A DNA stretch of 14,996 nt from a virus (taxonomy: Duplodnaviria; Heunggongvirae; Uroviricota; Caudoviricetes), in the IMG/VR virus record IMGVR_UViG_2713896798_000009. One strand, 5' to 3'. Each line of letters starts with the position of its first letter. Positions within the stretch are counted from its first letter, which is position 1. Made by a program: the position numbers and the translations under genes. The notes under the pieces are model-generated. The model did no database searches and was not told where the DNA came from. It worked only from the letters and a program-made list of their open reading frames with translations. This document shows positions 1 to 7,824 of the stretch, piece by piece.

Positions 1-165
1 ATGGCAAAGCCGATCATCACGCTCAATGGCCTAAAAATCGTCATTATGTTGGGAATGCTGGTCATTATTCTCTGCGGTATCCGTTTTGCCGCCGAGATCA
101 TCGTGCCGTTTATTCTCGCATTATTTATTGCTGTTATATATAACTTATTTAACTTAACTAATTGA
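1..165 (+). pseudogene. tqsA: 5' fragment of an AI-2E family transporter gene (TqsA-like). About 45 codons of a membrane-protein N-terminus ([45 protein letters not shown]), then the frame runs into AT-rich non-coding sequence and stops at 163-165.
   Basis: ATG at 1-3; hydrophobic N-terminus that I recall as TqsA/YdgG (recalled, not searched); reading frame ends after 9 unrelated codons; abrupt switch to AT-rich sequence at about 135-200. Confidence 0.45.
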
Positions 166-244
166 TTTAATTAAATAATTTGCACCACAAAAAGTGCCAA
201 AAATCGCAAAATGACTACACCAGTGACTACACCGTTCGGTGCAC

Positions 245-275
245 TGTATGAAACAACGTGGAACAAATAGACACA
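245..275 (-). promoter_or_regulatory. Copy L of a repeated motif (core AACAACGTGGAAC on the plus strand; reads TTGTTCCACGTTGTT on the minus strand) with flanking TTGT-type repeats
   Basis: Exact 13-nt core at 252-264 is identical to 7749-7761 and to the reverse complement of 13699-13711; flanks are also similar. Confidence 0.4.
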
Positions 276-596
276 AGAAATATAAAGGCGGGTCATCTTT
301 CCAGGGGGAAGCGCACCAATTCATGAGGGGCGTTAATGTCGATATGGGGATCCCCACCTACCGGAATTTTTTTCCGGTTAAACGTTAATCAGGCTGGTGG
401 GCTTTACATACCCTTGATCACGGTAATGATGATTCAGGTGCGTACCTTTTCCCCAGTGGGGTAAAAGCTCCAACCGTAACGATGTTCGTTGTGGTTGCCT
501 TGATGGTCTGCGTGGTCATTATGACCATTCAGAATTTGAAGGGTGATGTTTCCGATCTCCTCAAATTGAGGTTGCCGGAAATATCAACGGGTTAGG

Positions 597-889
597 CCAG
601 AGTGCAAATTTGCACTCTGGAACAATTCCAACCAGTAATCAGCGCAATTTTGCGCTTTGCTTTAAGTTCAGCGAGTAACCGAAGGCGGAATTCCGCCCTC
701 GGTACTCACATATGAGAAACGATATTTCTTCCACCGATACCCTTTATTTGGGTATCGCGAGTAAGCCCCAAAATCTGGGTGTTACTCTTACTACCCAAAC
801 TACGGGTATTTTCCGTAATTTCATGGTCGAGTTGCAGATCTGCAACTCACCCACCAGCCAACGCAATTTTGCGCTTTGCTTTAAGTTCA
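597..889. repeat. Cluster of distinct palindromes plus a 28-bp direct repeat, lying between the last packaging gene and the left junction
   Basis: Perfect 24-bp palindrome 597-620 (ccagagtgcaaatttgcactctgg); near-perfect 24-bp palindrome 679-702; hairpin 735-757 (cgataccc/gggtatcg); perfect 20-bp palindrome 829-848 (gagttgcagatctgcaactc); 28-bp direct repeat cgcaattttgcgctttgctttaagttca at 643-670 and 862-889. Confidence 0.6.
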
Positions 890-894
890 ACCAG

Positions 895-1176
895 TTACCG
901 CCGTAACCGCTCCGGCTTCTTCCAGTGGTACGTAATTTTTGCTTTTTCCCTGTACGTCTGCACGCGGCGACGGTAGGCCAGCATTTCAAGAACGCGGATC
1001 CGTATGTTGCGCATATCCACATCATTAAGCTGGATACCATCACGGCGCATCACCTCAGCAACAACTCGCGCATAATTTTCGGCGGTCACGCTGTCCGGCT
1101 GCGTGGCCTGTTCGTCATGCTGCTGGCTGATTCCAGAGACGCGGCGGATTAATCGCAGTATTTCGGCTTCTGTCAT
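895..1176 (-). CDS. hypothetical protein (93 aa), last gene of the packaging operon
   Basis: ATG at 1176 with GAGGT RBS about 7 nt upstream; 13 nt downstream of the terL stop; no family recognised. Confidence 0.5.
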   Translation of the reverse strand: MTEAEILRLIRRVSGISQQHDEQATQPDSVTAENYARVVAEVMRRDGIQLNDVDMRNIRIRVLEMLAYRRRVQTYREKAKITYHWKKPERLRR

Positions 1177-1189
1177 GCTGCTGACCTCA

Positions 1190-2851
1190 TTACACCCCGC
1201 TAAATTCTTCCAGTTTCTGGCGGTGGCTGTCGCTTATATCAAAAGCAAAATTCTCATGCTCTGCCTGGAATGTACCAAACGCCATCAGCGCCGCTACGCT
1301 CGGGTCTATCTTGTTCGGTGATTTTTTCTTGTTCGGCTTGATATTGGCGTTCGCGTCACTCTGCATCACGACGTTACTCATCGACCAGGACAACACCGGA
1401 TCGCCACGATGCACAATCACCCTGCGGTTAACAAAAACTTCGAACGATTTCGCCGCCGGACTGAATCTGAGGTAGGTTTGCGGGAACGGCTCCACCTCAA
1501 AACCAGCCCCCTGTAATTGCGTTCTCAGGTGCGTGGCGTTCCACGTATCAAAGCCCACCAGCCTGATATTAAATTTCTCCGCATCCTGCATGATGTCATC
1601 TCTGATCCGGTCGTAATCAATGCAGTCACCTGGCGTTGTGCGTATCCAGCCCGCTTTAGCCCACTGGCGATAGACAGCGCGGTTTTTATTGGCGGGGTTC
1701 TGTAGCTGGAACTCCGGCAGATAATGACGGGAAATCAGCATAATGGTTTTACCAACCGGAAAGGCATAGCACACGCTGGAAATATCGCTGGTTGATGATA
1801 AGTCCAGCCCCGCGTAACACTCCTGCCCGTGTAAATCTTCCTCCGTGAACGTTCCGGCACACTCAGCCCATGCGCCGTAACCCATCCACGGGGTAGCCCC
1901 CTGGCACCAGATATTAAATCGCTTTGTCATCATCTCCACCCATTGCGACGGAATACCCCGCGCTTTCTGGATGGTTGAGGCCAGTTTTTCACGATCCACG
2001 GAAACATCGATGTTAGGGTTAGCCTTTATCCACATCGCCGGATCATCAACCTCGTTTTCGTCGTCCAGCTCGTAAATCAGCACAAAAATTGAATCGTTGA
2101 CCTCTTCGCCGTCCAGGATCTGGCAGCAATAATCATAGTGCTGTTTACAGGCTGAAACGACGTTACTGCCCGATGTGGTAATGGCAAATAACAGCCCTTC
2201 GGGACGTGCGCCCATCCCCAGCTCAAGCGCGGAATAAACGCCGTTATCGGGGTGTAGGTGGTATTCGTCCACGATGGAAAGGCTTGGGTTTGTGCCCTCG
2301 ATGGTTGCCGCTTTTGCTGCCAGCGGCTTTAACAGGCTGTTGCTTTTCGGGTGCATCACCTTGTGGGCCTGAATATTCACCCGCCTGCGTAACGGTCGGG
2401 ATAAAAGGCACATCTGACGCGCATCATCAAAAACGATCCGCGCCTGGTCACGGCTCACCGCTGCGGTGTAGATATCCTGCTGCCCGTTCTCCATAATCAG
2501 AAACCAGTTAGCCAGAATCGCGGCGGTCGTGGATTTCGCATTTTTGCGCGGCACTTCGATAAAGGCGCTCGTGTATTTGCGCCGTCCGGTGGCCTTAACC
2601 TTAAAGCCGAGGATGCACGCAAAGGCGAACTGCTGCCACGGCTCCAGCTCAATGGGTCTGCCACGCATCGGCCCTTTTACGTGCGGGCACACCCTGGAAA
2701 AGGCAATAAACCGCTCCACGACCTCACGATCGAACGTATAAAGGGGGTTTTTAAGGTCAGAAAAGTACCGTTTAACGGCCTGTTTCAGCCGTTTACAGGC
2801 CGGAATTTTGCCCGTTTTTACGTCTTCTGCGTACTTATTCCAGGCGGTCAA
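1190..2851 (-). CDS. terL: terminase large subunit (HK97-like Terminase_1 type)
   Basis: 553-aa ORF; Walker A-like VPRKNAKST; typical TerL N-terminus and C-terminal nuclease region; TTG start at 2851 overlapping terS by 17 nt with a purine-rich RBS. Confidence 0.9.
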   Translation of the reverse strand: MTAWNKYAEDVKTGKIPACKRLKQAVKRYFSDLKNPLYTFDREVVERFIAFSRVCPHVKGPMRGRPIELEPWQQFAFACILGFKVKATGRRKYTSAFIEVPRKNAKSTTAAILANWFLIMENGQQDIYTAAVSRDQARIVFDDARQMCLLSRPLRRRVNIQAHKVMHPKSNSLLKPLAAKAATIEGTNPSLSIVDEYHLHPDNGVYSALELGMGARPEGLLFAITTSGSNVVSACKQHYDYCCQILDGEEVNDSIFVLIYELDDENEVDDPAMWIKANPNIDVSVDREKLASTIQKARGIPSQWVEMMTKRFNIWCQGATPWMGYGAWAECAGTFTEEDLHGQECYAGLDLSSTSDISSVCYAFPVGKTIMLISRHYLPEFQLQNPANKNRAVYRQWAKAGWIRTTPGDCIDYDRIRDDIMQDAEKFNIRLVGFDTWNATHLRTQLQGAGFEVEPFPQTYLRFSPAAKSFEVFVNRRVIVHRGDPVLSWSMSNVVMQSDANANIKPNKKKSPNKIDPSVAALMAFGTFQAEHENFAFDISDSHRQKLEEFSGV

Positions 2852-3191
2852 GCTCGTCCTCTTCTTCTGTTTCCGGTGGATTTTTACGGCGGCTTATCGG
2901 GTCAAAACCGAGCAAAGAGGCCATTTTTATCATCACTCTTTCCGCGTCGGATTTCGCGCTTAATGCGGGGTTTCTGCTCTCGCCGCCCTGACTGTTAACA
3001 ATGCTGAACCCGCGCGCCGCAAGGTCTGCGACGGCTTTCCGGTATATTGAGTAATTGACGCAATACAGTTCCAGATTACTCCAGTCGGCAGGGGTCAGGT
3101 CTCCCCGTTCCGCAAGCTGCCGCGATTTTTCCCGCCACTGCTTCACGGCGATATCATCCAGGTAGGCGGGGGCTTTCGGTGGTCTTGCCAT
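2835..3191 (-). CDS. terS: terminase small subunit (P27-family-like)
   Basis: 118-aa ORF with ATG start immediately upstream of and overlapping terL; sequence resembles P27-family TerS; acidic C-terminus. Confidence 0.75.
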   Translation of the reverse strand: MARPPKAPAYLDDIAVKQWREKSRQLAERGDLTPADWSNLELYCVNYSIYRKAVADLAARGFSIVNSQGGESRNPALSAKSDAERVMIKMASLLGFDPISRRKNPPETEEEDELDRLE

Positions 3192-3480
3192 GCTTATTTT
3201 TTCGCCAGATTATTTTTCAAAAAATTACCGTGCATAAAAATTTGGGGAGGCGGTCGGTTCTGGGCGGGGTCGGGTTCGTCCTGAAAACTCCCCCCACCCC
3301 GTCCGGCTGCCTCATCAGCGATTGCGGAAACATTCCATAACCTCGCGGTCACGGTCGTTTAATCGCGTCGCTGTGATGCGTTCTGCGCGTCCTGATGCTT
3401 TATCTTTATGCCCTGTTTCCTGTGCCTTCCATGCGTCACGCTGCCTTATAAGTCCACGGATAAGGCGGTTTTGTTCCCGC
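3192..3480. other. candidate cos / packaging-initiation region between the HNH and terS genes
   Basis: 289-bp non-coding gap in an otherwise tightly packed, overlapping operon; G-tract-rich segment about 3240-3310 (ggggaggcggtcgg...gggcggggtcggg...ccccccacccc); the HNH-cos-TerS-TerL arrangement is typical of HK97-like cos packaging. Confidence 0.3.
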
Positions 3481-3921
3481 TCATTCATCAGCGCCATACA
3501 TCCAGTTATTGCGGTTAGCGCCCCGTTCTTCCTCCTCACGGAATCCACCCGCAGCACGCTTGTTTTTTGTGGACGGATCAAGCCATTTCGTTTTCTGGTT
3601 ATGACACGCCTGGCACAATGGCTGATGATTCCACTCAGGCCAGAAGAGAACATCATTACCGCCATCGATTGGGATAATGTGATCCACCACCACGGCGGGC
3701 GTGTATATTCCTTTTTCCAGGCAATGCGCACATAACGGGTTTTTACTCAGATACATGGCGCGGTATTTCTCCCACTGCCTCGTATACCCTCGCTCCCTGC
3801 TGCTGCCTCTCCGGCTGTCCTGCTGCTGGCGTGCGCTGCGTCTGTGCTCCTCACACTTGCCGGACTTCACGCGCCTGTTGCAGCCTGGTTCTGTACATCG
3901 TCTTAATGGTTGCCACGGCAT
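3481..3921 (-). CDS. HNH endonuclease (terminase-associated)
   Basis: 146-aa ORF; Cys-rich N-terminus (CTEPGCNRRV...CEEH) and HNH core (VVVDHIIPI...GGND...N.QPLCQACHNQKT); ATG at 3921 shares one base with the upstream stop (TGATG). Confidence 0.85.
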   Translation of the reverse strand: MPWQPLRRCTEPGCNRRVKSGKCEEHRRSARQQQDSRRGSSRERGYTRQWEKYRAMYLSKNPLCAHCLEKGIYTPAVVVDHIIPIDGGNDVLFWPEWNHQPLCQACHNQKTKWLDPSTKNKRAAGGFREEEERGANRNNWMYGADE

Positions 3922-4217
3922 CAGTACACCCCCACATCACGGTAAGCCGTCCAGAGTGCGCCAATCGTCATGGGTACGTGTGTTTTTGCGTTATCCGCGA
4001 CAATCTGGCGATTCTCATACAGGTGAGCGATAAACATCATGCAGCCAATCTTTATGGCTGGCGTGAACTCCAGCCCGTCATCAAAGCGCCTGCCTATGTG
4101 TATCTGGCACGCCTCAAGCGATGCGGCAATGTATCCGCTGATTAACTGGTCTTCCTCGTCGCCATCGATGCGGCAATGGAGTTTCACTTCTTCCAGGGTG
4201 ATAAGTTCTTCTGTCAT
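3921..4217 (-). CDS. head-tail connector protein (gp6-like head completion)
   Basis: 98-aa ORF; N-terminus MTEELITLEEVKLHCRIDGDEEDQLISGYIAA typical of gp6-like connector proteins; ATGA overlap with the upstream gene. Confidence 0.7.
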   Translation of the reverse strand: MTEELITLEEVKLHCRIDGDEEDQLISGYIAASLEACQIHIGRRFDDGLEFTPAIKIGCMMFIAHLYENRQIVADNAKTHVPMTIGALWTAYRDVGVY

Positions 4218-4552
4218 TTTTCCGCGCCCTCACGACAAAGAATTTCAAGGCGTGTCCTGGCGGCATCCGGCAGCGGCTGCCCGATGATATTCAGTACACG
4301 CCCCGCCAGCGGCCCCGTATTGACCTTTATCCGGCTGGTGGCGTTGATGTCCTTCCGGTACCGTATCCAGATCCTTACGGTACCAATCGCCAGCTCTGCA
4401 CCCGATGAAATGGCCTCCTTGCTGCTGACCATGTTCACGCTTGCCCAGAGTGTGTGACCGTCCTCCCACGTTTCGAGTATTTCTCCCGTCATGGCTCTGG
4501 TCTGTTTCAGGGTCTGAATCGTTACCCTGTCACGCAGTCGCCCTATGTTCAT
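4214..4552 (-). CDS. head-tail joining / head closure protein
   Basis: Start chosen at ATG 4552 (MNIGRLRDRVTIQ...), which overlaps the portal stop as ATGA; the N-terminal motif is typical of phage head-tail joining proteins. The longer ORF-track start at 4594 would overlap the portal gene by 46 nt. Confidence 0.65.
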   Translation of the reverse strand: MNIGRLRDRVTIQTLKQTRAMTGEILETWEDGHTLWASVNMVSSKEAISSGAELAIGTVRIWIRYRKDINATSRIKVNTGPLAGRVLNIIGQPLPDAARTRLEILCREGAEK

Positions 4553-5760
4553 TCCGGTTTTTCTCCCTCGCTGATTTTTACTTCCTGTTTCCATGCCTGG
4601 CTGAACTCATCACCACCATCACGCGGAGACAACCCTTCTCGTTCGCGGGCTTCGTTCGGGCACATAACACCGGATTTGATGCCTCGCTCATAGGTGGCAA
4701 AGCGTTCGCCAGGTGTGGCCCGTAACAGGTCCGCGCTGTCAAACTCCACCTGATACCGGATACCAGGTACAGGCGAGACCACCAGCAAAGCGTTTTTTAT
4801 CTGCTGCTCAAAGTTCGCCAGCCACGGGCGCATCGTCATGGTGAGAAATGCGCGGCTTGCCTCGCTGAAATTGCTGTAGGTGCTGTTGCTGTATTCCTGC
4901 AGAAAAATCGGCGAGACGTTGAACATTCGGGCGATGTCTTCAATGGTGAAGCGACGGGAGGCCAGCCATTCGGCGTCCTGGTTACTCATGCCCAGCTGCT
5001 GGTAACTCATGCCCCCTTCAAGGATGGGCGTTTTTCCGGCGTTTTTGGCCCCTTTATAGCGTTCCAGTGCGGCTAATGCCTGTTTGCCTTTCACGCCGTC
5101 CAGCCATTCGCCTGACGTGATAACCCCTGCCGCCATCATGCCATCACGCATCACGCTCGCGCCGTGGCGTTGTTGGGCCAGCCCAAGCCCCAGCGATTCG
5201 CGGCAGATGGTTACGGGTGAGCGCCCCATAAAGCCGTCATCCGTGGAGTAACGAAGGTGAAGTACTTCCCACGGTAAATAGTTGCGGGTGTTTCCGGTGT
5301 AGGCGTCAGTGATGCAATAGCGCCAGTTGTGTTCTCCTGTCTGCTCCACGTTCACCGACTGCGGCGGGTAAGGATGTAAAGCCGCCGGAAAACCATCACG
5401 CCCCCACTGAATCACCGCGTAAGCATTACCGTTTAACAGGCAGTGGCGGATCATCATTCGCTTAAACTGGTAGGGAGTCTGCCACGCGTTCGGGCGCTCG
5501 TTGAGGATGTGATCGACCGGATGAGAATCAAGCCACTCGCGGGCCTCCTTCCCCTTCTCATTGCGTACCAGGTACAGGTAACACGGCATAGTAGCCACCG
5601 CCTCAGAGATGACCGTGACGGCGTTCATGACGGCGGGCAGTGATTCCGCTGTCCCCGATGATACATACTCACCCGCCCCCGTGTTTAATGTACCAGCCAG
5701 CGCCATAAATTCATCAAGCGTCATGCTGCGCTGCTCTTTTTTTCTTCTGAAAGGCCACAT
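4549..5760 (-). CDS. portal protein (HK97 family)
   Basis: 403-aa ORF with portal-like sequence and acidic C-terminus; ATG at 5760 with GGGGG RBS about 8 nt upstream; follows the protease gene with a 1-nt gap. Confidence 0.9.
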   Translation of the reverse strand: MWPFRRKKEQRSMTLDEFMALAGTLNTGAGEYVSSGTAESLPAVMNAVTVISEAVATMPCYLYLVRNEKGKEAREWLDSHPVDHILNERPNAWQTPYQFKRMMIRHCLLNGNAYAVIQWGRDGFPAALHPYPPQSVNVEQTGEHNWRYCITDAYTGNTRNYLPWEVLHLRYSTDDGFMGRSPVTICRESLGLGLAQQRHGASVMRDGMMAAGVITSGEWLDGVKGKQALAALERYKGAKNAGKTPILEGGMSYQQLGMSNQDAEWLASRRFTIEDIARMFNVSPIFLQEYSNSTYSNFSEASRAFLTMTMRPWLANFEQQIKNALLVVSPVPGIRYQVEFDSADLLRATPGERFATYERGIKSGVMCPNEAREREGLSPRDGGDEFSQAWKQEVKISEGEKPE

Positions 5761-5761
5761 A

Positions 5762-6319
5762 TCACACCCCCGCTAAATCCACCCACCAGCGGCGATTATC
5801 CGCACGCGGCATTTTTTCGGGGTGCTGCTCATACAGGGAACGGCGGACCAGCTCCACACCGGAATCGGGGTAAGCCGGTACGGATGTGACGGTAATTTCG
5901 TACAGTTCCGCAACCAGCACGGTGCGCACGCATGGATCTGTTGTGGTATCCCATACATCCTTACGGGAACGAAAGCCAAAGCTCATGCCGGATATATCAC
6001 CACGCTTAACCAGTTCGATAACGTCCCGCCCTGTACTGGTATCCGGTGGCGTCAGTTCAAAGCGTAACCCTGTGTCGTCCTCTTCCAGTTTCAGCGAGCC
6101 GGAACGGGTGCGCCCCAGTAACATGCTGTGGTCATGCTCATACAGGCCGCGAACGTCATTACCCGCCGCAAGCCACTCAGTAAACGCCCCCCGCTGAAAT
6201 TTTTCGTAAAACTCACCCCATAGCAGATCAGAAAGGTTATTCCAGCGAACAACGTAACCCGTCAGCGTGTTGCTGGCGCTGGTGGTGATTTCCGATGACC
6301 GGATTTCCATACTCTTCAT
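5762..6319 (-). CDS. prohead maturation protease (HK97 family)
   Basis: Start set at ATG 6319 (MKSMEIRSSEIT...) rather than the ORF-track 6433, which would overlap the capsid gene; motifs GAFTEWL and RGDISGMSFGF. Confidence 0.85.
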   Translation of the reverse strand: MKSMEIRSSEITTSASNTLTGYVVRWNNLSDLLWGEFYEKFQRGAFTEWLAAGNDVRGLYEHDHSMLLGRTRSGSLKLEEDDTGLRFELTPPDTSTGRDVIELVKRGDISGMSFGFRSRKDVWDTTTDPCVRTVLVAELYEITVTSVPAYPDSGVELVRRSLYEQHPEKMPRADNRRWWVDLAGV

Positions 6320-6344
6320 AATTTTTTTCACCCATAAAACACTA

Positions 6345-6364
6345 AAGGGGCTTTTTAGCCCCTT
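6345..6364 (-). terminator. hairpin between the capsid and protease genes, possibly a partial terminator/attenuator
   Basis: Minus-strand RNA has a 7-bp stem (aaggggc/gcccctt) followed by a U-rich tract, 18 nt after the capsid stop and about 25 nt before the protease start. Confidence 0.35.
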
Positions 6365-6374
6365 CTGTATGCTG

Positions 6375-7532
6375 TTAATCGTCGTCCTGTGGCAGTTCCA
6401 GAATCTTGATCGCGTTCGAATCCACCACGCCACCGCCTAAATATTTCTGCGTGAAAATTTTGATGAATCCTGGTTCTGTCAGGTTGTCCGGTCTGGTGCG
6501 AACACCCGTTTCGTGATCAACAATGTAGTAACCGCGTTTGAAGTCACCCAGGGCAATAACGTTATCCGGCATAAACTCCAGATATTCGACCGGAAGGCCC
6601 AGCAACGTATCAGGATCACCAGCCTGTAAACGGTCGCGCCAGATGTAATCACCGTTCGCGTTCTTCACCTTCTGAAGTTTTGCCGCCGTCGTGGAGTTAA
6701 CCACCCAGACCGCGTTTTTGCGGTATTTTTTACGTAATGCAAATTTCAGGTCGATCAGCGGGTCCGCAGATGTCCACGCAAGAGACTCAGAAGGCTTAAT
6801 TACCTGCAACGTACCAAAATCACGCTCTTTGTCGTTCTTCTCTGCACGGGGTACGGATAAAAAGCCTTTTGCTTTTTTGTCACCGTCGCCCACAACCAGA
6901 TCGCTTTCTTCGATTTCCGTGAAGGTGTCGCCAATCTCGCCCGTCAGCCATGAAAGGATGTCCACATCGGAAAAATCCACGATTTCCTGTGTGGTGCGCG
7001 GGTACGCATAGACCGGATACAGCTTAATGCTCACCTCGTTAATCTGCGGGGTGCTGGTCTGTTCGCGTGACTTACCCTCTTCACCGTGGTTAACGGTCGC
7101 ACCGCCAGCGGAAACAAGCTGCTTAAACTCGTTGCTGCTGATTTTCTTCACGGTACAGATGCGGCGCATGGTGGATTCATCCGCCAGCATTCGCATGATT
7201 TCGGTGTTCAGTTCAGGGATAACGGTATAACCACCATCAGCGGGGACACCTGTACTTAATGCGCGGGTTTCACCTGTCAGGATGTAGTTGCGGAGTTCTG
7301 CCGGGTCAGTGGTCTGGCTGCTTTTACCTGGCTTGCTGCGATCTTCGTCTGCAATGGCTTCAAGGCGGGAAATGTCTTTATCGAGGGATTCAGCTTTAGC
7401 GCGTAATTCGTCAAATTTTGCGCCCTCTGCATCGTTAAGGCTGCGGTTTTCTTTTTCCGCGTTCTCCAGCATGTCGCGCATCTGATTTTTAATGGCGGTT
7501 TTCTGCTGGCGTAATTCGATTATTCTCGGCAT
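6375..7532 (-). CDS. major capsid protein (HK97 fold) with N-terminal coiled-coil scaffolding (delta) domain
   Basis: Start set at ATG 7532 (MPRIIELRQQKTAIKNQ...); the ORF-track start at 7577 is TTG and lies inside a hairpin; charged coiled-coil-like N-terminal region followed by a capsid-like body. Confidence 0.9.
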   Translation of the reverse strand: MPRIIELRQQKTAIKNQMRDMLENAEKENRSLNDAEGAKFDELRAKAESLDKDISRLEAIADEDRSKPGKSSQTTDPAELRNYILTGETRALSTGVPADGGYTVIPELNTEIMRMLADESTMRRICTVKKISSNEFKQLVSAGGATVNHGEEGKSREQTSTPQINEVSIKLYPVYAYPRTTQEIVDFSDVDILSWLTGEIGDTFTEIEESDLVVGDGDKKAKGFLSVPRAEKNDKERDFGTLQVIKPSESLAWTSADPLIDLKFALRKKYRKNAVWVVNSTTAAKLQKVKNANGDYIWRDRLQAGDPDTLLGLPVEYLEFMPDNVIALGDFKRGYYIVDHETGVRTRPDNLTEPGFIKIFTQKYLGGGVVDSNAIKILELPQDDD

Positions 7533-7570
7533 AAAAAAAAGTCCTGGGGTTAAGTAAGGAACTCCAGGAC
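7533..7570 (-). promoter_or_regulatory. terminator-like hairpin plus U8 directly abutting the capsid start codon
   Basis: Minus-strand RNA: GUCCUGG, 16-nt loop, CCAGGAC, then UUUUUUUU, then AUG; no Shine-Dalgarno sequence between structure and start codon. Confidence 0.45.
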
Positions 7571-7740
7571 GCGGCAAAAACTCAACCGTTTTTCATAAGG
7601 AAATCAGCAATCGCACCGATCGTTTTCCCGCCTGGTAATGAATATTGGTGAGCACATTAACAGGCGGGAAAGTGGCCCCAGCGTCCTGGCACCACTGGCG
7701 AGAATAATCATGATTCAGGGCGGGTAAAATATGCCGATCC

Positions 7741-7790: not shown

Positions 7791-7814
7791 ACAAAAAGCC
7801 GGATTGCTCCGGCT
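7791..7814 (-). terminator. rho-independent terminator after the 74-aa gene
   Basis: Minus-strand stem agccgga/tccggcu with 4-nt loop followed by UUUUU; nearly identical to the hairpin at 8151-8168. Confidence 0.6.
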
Positions 7815-7824
7815 GTATGGGTGC

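Follow-up and report, generated by a model that had tools for sequence, protein, structure and literature searches.

Gene order and a predicted cos site in the probable packaging operon of an EcCIEDL933-type satellite inserted in tqsA

The prototype of the phage-inducible chromosomal islands of the capsid-forming kind (cf-PICIs) is EcCIEDL933, which resides in E. coli O157:H7 EDL933. Induction by a helper phage, small capsids and dependence on helper tails have been shown experimentally for this element, the same study states that the order of the head and packaging genes is conserved, and mutation of the module gene by gene abolished transfer in every case except that of one hypothetical gene, for which transfer was severely reduced (Alqurainy et al., bioRxiv 10.1101/2022.09.08.507074). 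This gene list has since served as a search criterion for cf-PICIs, in a report that also describes a nine-gene packaging module together with cohesive cos ends, the latter for KpCIDSM30104 (He et al., bioRxiv 10.1101/2025.02.11.637232). A SatelliteFinder survey placed cf-PICIs in about 13% of Enterobacteriaceae genomes. Here we describe the head and packaging genes of a stretch of 14,996 nt from the IMG/VR virus record IMGVR_UViG_2713896798_000009 (the window in what follows is this whole stretch). Positions 895-7577 of the window very probably form the packaging operon of an EcCIEDL933-type cf-PICI that is inserted in tqsA, with the cos cut predicted within 3210-3277.

Read along the minus strand, the module consists of capsid, protease, portal, head-closure protein, adaptor, HNH endonuclease, a 60-aa open reading frame (ORF), a 123-nt gap, TerS, TerL and a 93-aa ORF. 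An earlier note, made from the letters of the window, had proposed the minus-strand order capsid, protease, portal, head completion, HNH, gap, TerS, TerL and small ORF, and the Pfam searches confirmed each of these assignments. The five head components (capsid, protease, portal, adaptor and connector) all scored above the Pfam gathering scores, and 10 of the 10 ORFs of the module are intact. The features of the module, in the direction of transcription, are as follows.

6375-7532, minus strand: major capsid protein (HK97 fold), with which the packaging operon opens; Pfam PF05065 Phage_capsid, E 5.5e-61
5762-6319, minus strand: prohead serine protease (S78); Pfam PF04586 Peptidase_S78, E 2.8e-47; start taken from the PGAP annotation of the E. 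coli island L001 (see below)
4549-5760, minus strand: portal protein; Pfam PF04860 Phage_portal, E 3e-90; HK97 portal, PDB 8cez, E 2.4e-30
4214-4552, minus strand: head closure protein (Hc1, HK97 gp7-like); Pfam PF05521 Phage_HCP, E 1e-22
3921-4217, minus strand: head-tail adaptor (Ad1, gp6-like); Pfam PF05135 Phage_connect_1, E 3.2e-12; phrog_40 'head-tail adaptor Ad1', E 2.8e-35
3481-3921, minus strand: HNH endonuclease, terminase accessory; Pfam PF01844, E 9.4e-8; adjoins the predicted cos and terS, like its HK97 and SfV counterparts
3315-3497, minus strand: 60-aa ORF; phrog_3173, E 9.6e-35; annotated by PGAP in L001 and EDL933
3192-3314, minus strand: non-coding gap (predicted cos region), 123 nt between the 60-aa ORF and terS
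2835-3191, minus strand: small terminase TerS, P27 family; Pfam PF05119 Terminase_4, E 1.3e-23
1190-2851, minus strand: large terminase TerL (ATPase and nuclease); Pfam PF03354, E 1.3e-25, and PF20441, E 1.3e-50; PGAP annotation
895-1176, minus strand: 93-aa ORF; no Pfam match; phrog_1561, E 1.4e-56

The capsid protein is nearly identical to PDB 9gyi_B, 'Major head protein' (E 1.8e-254, 385/385 aa covered), and the head closure protein is essentially identical over its full length to PDB 2kz4 (E 3e-68), an entry titled merely 'Putative head-tail adaptor'. TerL starts with TTG, and its start overlaps terS. The 60-aa ORF overlaps the HNH stop by 17 nt and was matched by tblastn in many, not all, of the relatives. 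The gap between HNH and terS had originally been placed at 3192-3480; the part from 3192 to 3314 is indeed non-coding, while the remainder is taken up by this ORF.

EcCIEDL933 has the same genes in the same order as the window, including small ORFs between HNH and terS and after terL, and the TerS accession WP_000113645.1 is common to EcCIEDL933 and L001. The DNA identity between EcCIEDL933 and window 887-5655 is 95.4%, in an alignment to a fetched EDL933 stretch that begins mid-portal and runs to the phoQ side, with the capsid, the protease and the integrase-side half lying outside it. The two elements differ at several positions of the non-coding gap and in their insertion sites, which are tqsA for the window and a site adjoining phoQ for EcCIEDL933. 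The gene order of the window is the published conserved layout of proteobacterial cf-PICIs, is used for recognising them and was already known. The proposal that this order is a signature of the satellite family proved correct, with conservation in 130 of 130 complete loci, and had already appeared in print. It carries little weight as a discovery, since the layout is a published hallmark of cf-PICIs. Its value is in annotation, where what would be called a 'cryptic prophage' becomes a probable self-packaging satellite that would move DNA with borrowed tails only.

The window is 99.4% identical to L001, an island of about 15 kb in E. coli SCPM-O-B-9504 that splits tqsA into fragments at 4001-4144 and 19188-20093 of that locus. 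Upstream of the capsid gene, and on the same strand, are genes for PerC, a single-stranded DNA-binding protein (SSB), a D5-type primase-helicase (9713-11545, with D5_N, DUF5906 and Pox_D5), an AlpA-type regulator (13229-13417; Phage_AlpA, E 1.3e-16) and a tyrosine integrase (13779-14996). No tRNA gene was found in the window. Tail, holin and lysis genes gave no Pfam or PHROG match among the scanned ORFs of the window, and none is present in the PGAP annotation of the whole L001 island. All 11 of the cfPICI core components are present, and the components that SatelliteFinder forbids (tail, holin, lysis) are absent. The element is integrated, has its integrase at one end, falls within the size range of cf-PICIs (about 10-18 kb) and has its own HNH, TerS and TerL in the order capsid-protease-portal-connectors-hnh-terS-terL. 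With a length of 15 kb, no tail or lysis genes and a reversed head order, it does not have the make-up of a complete HK97-like prophage. From the near-identity to EcCIEDL933 we infer a self-packaging lifestyle, in which the element would make its own small HK97-fold capsids and would package solely its own DNA by means of its own HNH-TerS-TerL, and only the tails would be taken from a helper phage.

An alignment of 14 capsid homologues served to retrieve loci from species-representative genomes (80 loci) and from IMG/VR (80 loci). Together with L001 and three 'phage' records found by similarity searches (L082-L084), these gave a tally of 164 loci, onto which the window proteins were mapped by tblastn. 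The order capsid-protease-portal-(Hc1)-Ad1-HNH-(orf60)-terS-terL was found on one strand in all of the loci that reach terL (130/130); the other loci were cut by the end of the DNA (29) or truncated internally (5). The complete loci span Enterobacterales, Orbales and Pasteurella, with capsid identities of 57-99%, and the hosts include Escherichia, Shigella, Citrobacter, Proteus, Providencia, Xenorhabdus, Photorhabdus, Serratia, Erwinia, Pantoea, Kosakonia, Gilliamella, Frischella and Pasteurella. A different linear order was seen only in the records LR881103.1 and PQ569648.1, which start with terS-terL and end with HNH and thus correspond to the circle of the other loci, opened between HNH and terS. 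Among 5426 complete E. coli genomes, 413 contain at least 80% of the module.

Two side observations came from these loci. A copy in Shigella flexneri (CP182556.1; L002) that is 98% identical has a deletion that fuses CCCGACCCCGCC to terS codon 8; the cos core and the start of terS are gone, and this copy is decayed and presumably non-packageable. In Xenorhabdus, many separate cf-PICI loci were found per genome (L013-L059 and others), and X. anantnagensis XENO-2 and X. innexi DSM 16336 each have at least 5 contigs with cf-PICI loci, which suggests that the satellite load in Xenorhabdus is unusually high.

Three phages, HK97, SfV and YeP1, were checked in full. The HK97 record has TerS at 50-535 followed by TerL, portal, protease, capsid, Ad1 and Hc1, with HNH at 39054-39413 of 39732, and SfV and YeP1 have the same order with the HNH gene at the right end. 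These records agree with the canonical layout given in the earlier note, TerS-TerL-portal-protease-capsid with HNH at the opposite end. The comparison with HK97-like phages and related islands that the note had called for shows an order that differs from that of the phages and is kept throughout the complete cf-PICI loci. The adjacency HNH-cos-terS-terL, with the cos of the window a predicted one, is common to the window and the three phages. The head genes, in contrast, are upstream of HNH in the window and downstream of terL in the phages, and two sub-blocks are reversed, with capsid-protease-portal and Hc1-Ad1 in the window versus portal-protease-capsid and Ad1-Hc1 in the phages. All of the module genes in the window nevertheless keep one direction of transcription. 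Since the two sub-blocks are reversed without a change of strand, rotation of a circular map cannot produce the order seen in the window, which is a true rearrangement. The capsid, protease, portal, Ad1 and Hc1 proteins of the three phages are homologous to those of the window, although at a protein identity of only about 30-37%, and their genomes of 37-40 kb have tail, lysis and lysogeny genes, whereas the window element is without tail and lysis genes. In the phage collection, the capsid and TerL matches with more than 57% identity were all to small 'phages' that are cf-PICIs, and the next best matches were at 29-40%. In most of the other top phage matches, capsid and TerL were located where the canonical layout would put them.

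The non-coding gap between the 60-aa ORF and terS contains a conserved block with the following features.

3290-3300, minus strand: G-run
3278-3287, minus strand: TTTTCAGGAC
3244-3257, minus strand: C-rich box
3210-3244, minus strand: CAAATTTTTATGCACGGTAATTTTTTGAAAAATAA
3210-3277, minus strand: predicted cos cleavage interval, the homologue of 69 nt that LR881103.1 lacks between its two ends

Across 119 unique sequences the block 5' of terS is made up of the G-run, the C-rich box and CAAATTTTTAYGCACGG-N2-T6-7-GAAAATAA; CAAATTTTTATGC and ACGGTAATTTTTT are boxes within the predicted cos region. The block is conserved to the same degree as coding positions: its mean majority fraction is 0.846, and the values for terS are 0.82 at first, 0.88 at second and 0.59 at third codon positions. 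The block is AT-rich and is beside the ribosome-binding site of terS. HK97, YeP1 and SfV share with the window gap an architecture of G-run, C-run and T-tract around their genome termini. The termini of the HK97 and YeP1 records align between about 3247 and 3246 of the window, and the SfV terminus falls between the G-run and the C-run.

The prediction of packaged ends comes from LR881103.1 ('vB_KppS-Ant'; L082), for which Nextera XT reads of virion DNA were assembled de novo with SPAdes. This record is >99% identical to a region of Klebsiella pneumoniae DSM 30104 and is therefore KpCIDSM30104. Its authors described vB_KppS-Ant as a filamentous ssDNA prophage of a novel genus (Townsend et al., PMC8006926); the genes that it carries mark it as the cf-PICI KpCIDSM30104 in its packaged form. 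This element has the same module, the same order and the same G-run/C-run/T-tract block 5' of terS as the window, with identities of 65% for capsid, 83% for TerS and 81% for TerL, and differs in having a large extra gene after terL and in that its record is the linear packaged form, starting at terS. The extra gene (2036-4333, 765 aa) is labelled 'tail length tape measure protein' in the record, yet it lies in a variable accessory slot. LR881103.1 begins 22 nt before the terS ATG (terS at 23), and its small ORF ends at 16511 of 16548, 37 nt from the end, while the contiguous copies in L169, L174 and L181 carry 69 nt that are missing between these ends. Tagmentation libraries give poor coverage of the ends of molecules. 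A fixed physical end inside the 69 nt would explain the assembly, and by homology the packaged ends of the window element are predicted to lie within 3210-3277. The earlier note had reasoned that a cos site in the HNH-terS gap would leave terS-terL at one end of the packaged DNA and all of the head genes at the other, and had proposed mapping the ends from virion DNA. LR881103.1 shows exactly this arrangement in a relative, with HNH on the side of the head genes and with the ends of the assembly in the gap, flanking the DNA homologous to 3210-3277. The adjacency of HNH and terS-terL that is typical of HNH-dependent cos packaging is present in the window, and fixed ends in the gap are predicted from the assembly of the relative, for which cohesive ends are reported. 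This gives a small addition to what is published, a concrete prediction of the cos location for the family, which we did not find stated in the accessible cf-PICI literature and which would be useful for engineering such elements or for calling ends in virome data.

A second record broken in the HNH-terS gap is PQ569648.1 ('Klebsiella phage P12620-1', 106.5 kb; L084 is its stretch 88000-106503). The record appears to be chimeric, with unrelated sequence fused to a cf-PICI that makes up the last ~16 kb and whose first letters are the terS ATG. It breaks off 5 nt before the small ORF that follows HNH reaches its stop. The ends of IMG/VR contigs were also considered as a guide to packaged ends and proved uninformative, nearly all being prophage predictions from isolate genomes or contigs that cross cos.

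Several results count against this placement of cos or restrict it. Local alignment of the HK97 cos junction to the cf-PICI gap was no better than that of 2000 dinucleotide shuffles (z 0 to 1.4), and the YeP1 cos was only marginal (z 1.4 to 2.5, 56/2000 shuffles at best); since the alignment to HK97 is not significant, our claim is limited to a shared architecture and does not extend to sequence homology. Measured against the shared motifs, the SfV terminus is displaced upstream by ~20 nt from the HK97 and YeP1 termini, so that the positions of the nicks are uncertain within about 70 nt. HK97 TerS has no detectable similarity to the TerS of the window. The end mapping depends on homology to KpCIDSM30104, whose TerS and capsid are 83% and 65% identical to those of the window, and the loss of the 69 nt is ascribed, by inference, to the end coverage of tagmentation. 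The window TerS is 31% identical to YeP1 TerS (E 9e-17), and a PDB search with it gave no match. In view of the dissimilar TerS proteins and the missing PDB match, the site bound by HK97 TerS, mapped to positions 15-29 beyond the cut, was not carried over to the window and remains a suggestion.

Terminator-like hairpins lie on either side of the capsid gene.

6344-6365, minus strand: GC-rich hairpin followed by a T-rich tail, just past the capsid stop and ahead of the protease start; terminator-like site
7797-7814, minus strand: terminator-like hairpin 5' of the capsid gene; upstream limit of the packaging cassette

Most of 121 unique relatives have a hairpin and T run at this position as well, and their stem sequences vary. 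Such a hairpin is a feature of the phage side as well as of the window, and the HK97 and SfV records have putative terminators annotated 3' of the capsid gene. The hairpin at 6344-6365 is a candidate attenuator or mRNA-stabilising stem. The stem of 7797-7814 recurs at 8151-8168 (minus strand) as AGCCGGAG(A/C)AATCCGGCT, followed by a T run; the two terminator-like stems sit after PerC and after a 74-aa ORF, just upstream of the capsid operon. In a sigma-70 promoter scan of the operon, sites were no commoner than in shuffled sequence, and no promoter is claimed.

A reasonable reading of these features is a single late transcript that would be attenuated after capsid, the most abundant protein, and would read through cos into terS-terL. 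Terminase would cut within 3210-3277, and the packaged linear DNA would have terS-terL at its start and the head genes, HNH and the small ORF at its far end. The operon would then be whole only in the integrated, circular or concatemeric form. With cos inside the operon, terS-terL of incoming linear DNA would be separated from their promoter until the ends join. It is also conceivable that the order reflects functional design, with capsid first and followed by the conserved hairpin, then protease, portal and neck, and finally the catalytic HNH, TerS and TerL, an arrangement in roughly descending order of copy-number need, in which one promoter together with attenuation would set the stoichiometry. 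TerS might recognise the very conserved CAAATTTTTAYGCACGG-N2-T6-7 box (3219-3244), which would give these satellites exclusive self-packaging across genera. The combination of all three proposals, in which the order is a functional design based on a copy-number gradient and hairpin attenuation, cos splits the operon and the CAAATTTTTAYGCACGG-N2-T6-7 box is the TerS site, is tentative, and we regard it as possible rather than probable.

Other explanations of the locus can be proposed. The permutation might be only apparent, the locus being an integrated HK97-like prophage whose map is circularly permuted; HNH-cos-terS-terL is canonical on a circular map, and the virion-derived LR881103.1 starts with terS-terL, like phages. 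On that circular map, however, terL is followed by att/int, regulation and replication genes and not by portal, the reversal of capsid-protease-portal and of Hc1-Ad1 relative to HK97 and SfV on the same strand is one that no rotation yields, and ~15 kb of DNA with no tail or lysis genes does not resemble such a phage. The gene order on the linear LR881103.1 refutes circular permutation, which we find scarcely credible. It is very improbable, too, that the locus is the remnant of a decaying cryptic prophage in which the order is accidental and functionless. Such elements have historically been annotated as cryptic prophages, one capsid homologue is named after 'prophage CP-933C', and decayed copies do exist, as in the Shigella locus, which has lost the 5' end of terS along with the cos core, and in the five internally truncated loci. 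Against decay in the window stand the ten intact ORFs, the recurrence of one order in 130 loci from many genera over capsid identities of 57-99%, the presence of at least 80% of the module in 413 of the 5426 E. coli genomes, the need for the genes of the 95%-identical EcCIEDL933 in transfer and the sequencing of particles of a relative.

A further explanation concerns only the conserved block 5' of terS, which might act as a promoter or translational control of terS-terL, with the packaging site elsewhere or with headful packaging. Its AT-richness next to the terS ribosome-binding site and the lack of significance in the pairwise comparison to the HK97 cos would fit this explanation, although a crude consensus scan found no strong minus-strand promoter in the block. 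Two independent linear records that derive from virions are broken precisely in the block, cohesive ends are reported for the relative KpCIDSM30104, HNH-dependent terminases are of the cos type with cos beside HNH and terS, and terS overlaps terL and closely follows HNH and the small ORF, as would be expected within an operon. A purely regulatory block is thus unlikely, and a cos site in the gap of a cf-PICI packaging operon is the reading that we prefer.

The cf-PICI packaging operon also has a counterpart in classical PICIs. A cf-PICI was looked for in E. coli O157:H7 TW14359, and a classical PICI was found at the site of EcCIEDL933, next to phoQ, instead. This PICI shares its backbone with the window at 76-93% DNA identity, comprising the int/alpA side, a replicase/DUF4222 segment, the PerC-SSB segment and the 93-aa ORF with the DNA downstream of it. 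The shared backbone segments include window 161-595, 856-1176, 7793-8879 and 12722-14993, and it is at 7793 that similarity to the classical PICI backbone resumes. The content of the slot differs, with a 3.2-kb module (capsid-like protein, decoration protein and TerS) in TW14359 versus a self-sufficient module of 6.6 kb in the window; the TW14359 PICI is without portal, protease, adaptors, HNH and TerL. In both elements the morphogenesis genes lead and terS lies close to the end. Since the packaging block occupies the same slot as the classical module, from the PerC/SSB segment to the 93-aa ORF near the attachment site, it can be viewed as an exchangeable cassette. At the phoQ-adjacent site of two O157:H7 strains, TW14359 has the classical PICI and EDL933 has EcCIEDL933, with the backbone shared and the cassette swapped.

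The 93-aa ORF seems to be a general end gene of PICIs, part of the shared backbone and not of the head and terminase cassette. It has DNA matches of 86-91% at the end of the classical PICIs in TW14359 and CFT073. On its own it occurs in many more E. coli genomes than the module does, including CFT073 and many O157:H7 strains.

At the other side of the island, window 12146-13168 holds a mechanically called ORF of 340 aa, in place of which PGAP annotates a short Icd-like gene and a pseudogene in L001, together with a YlcI/YnfO gene on the opposite strand at the equivalent position. This part of the island may be degraded.

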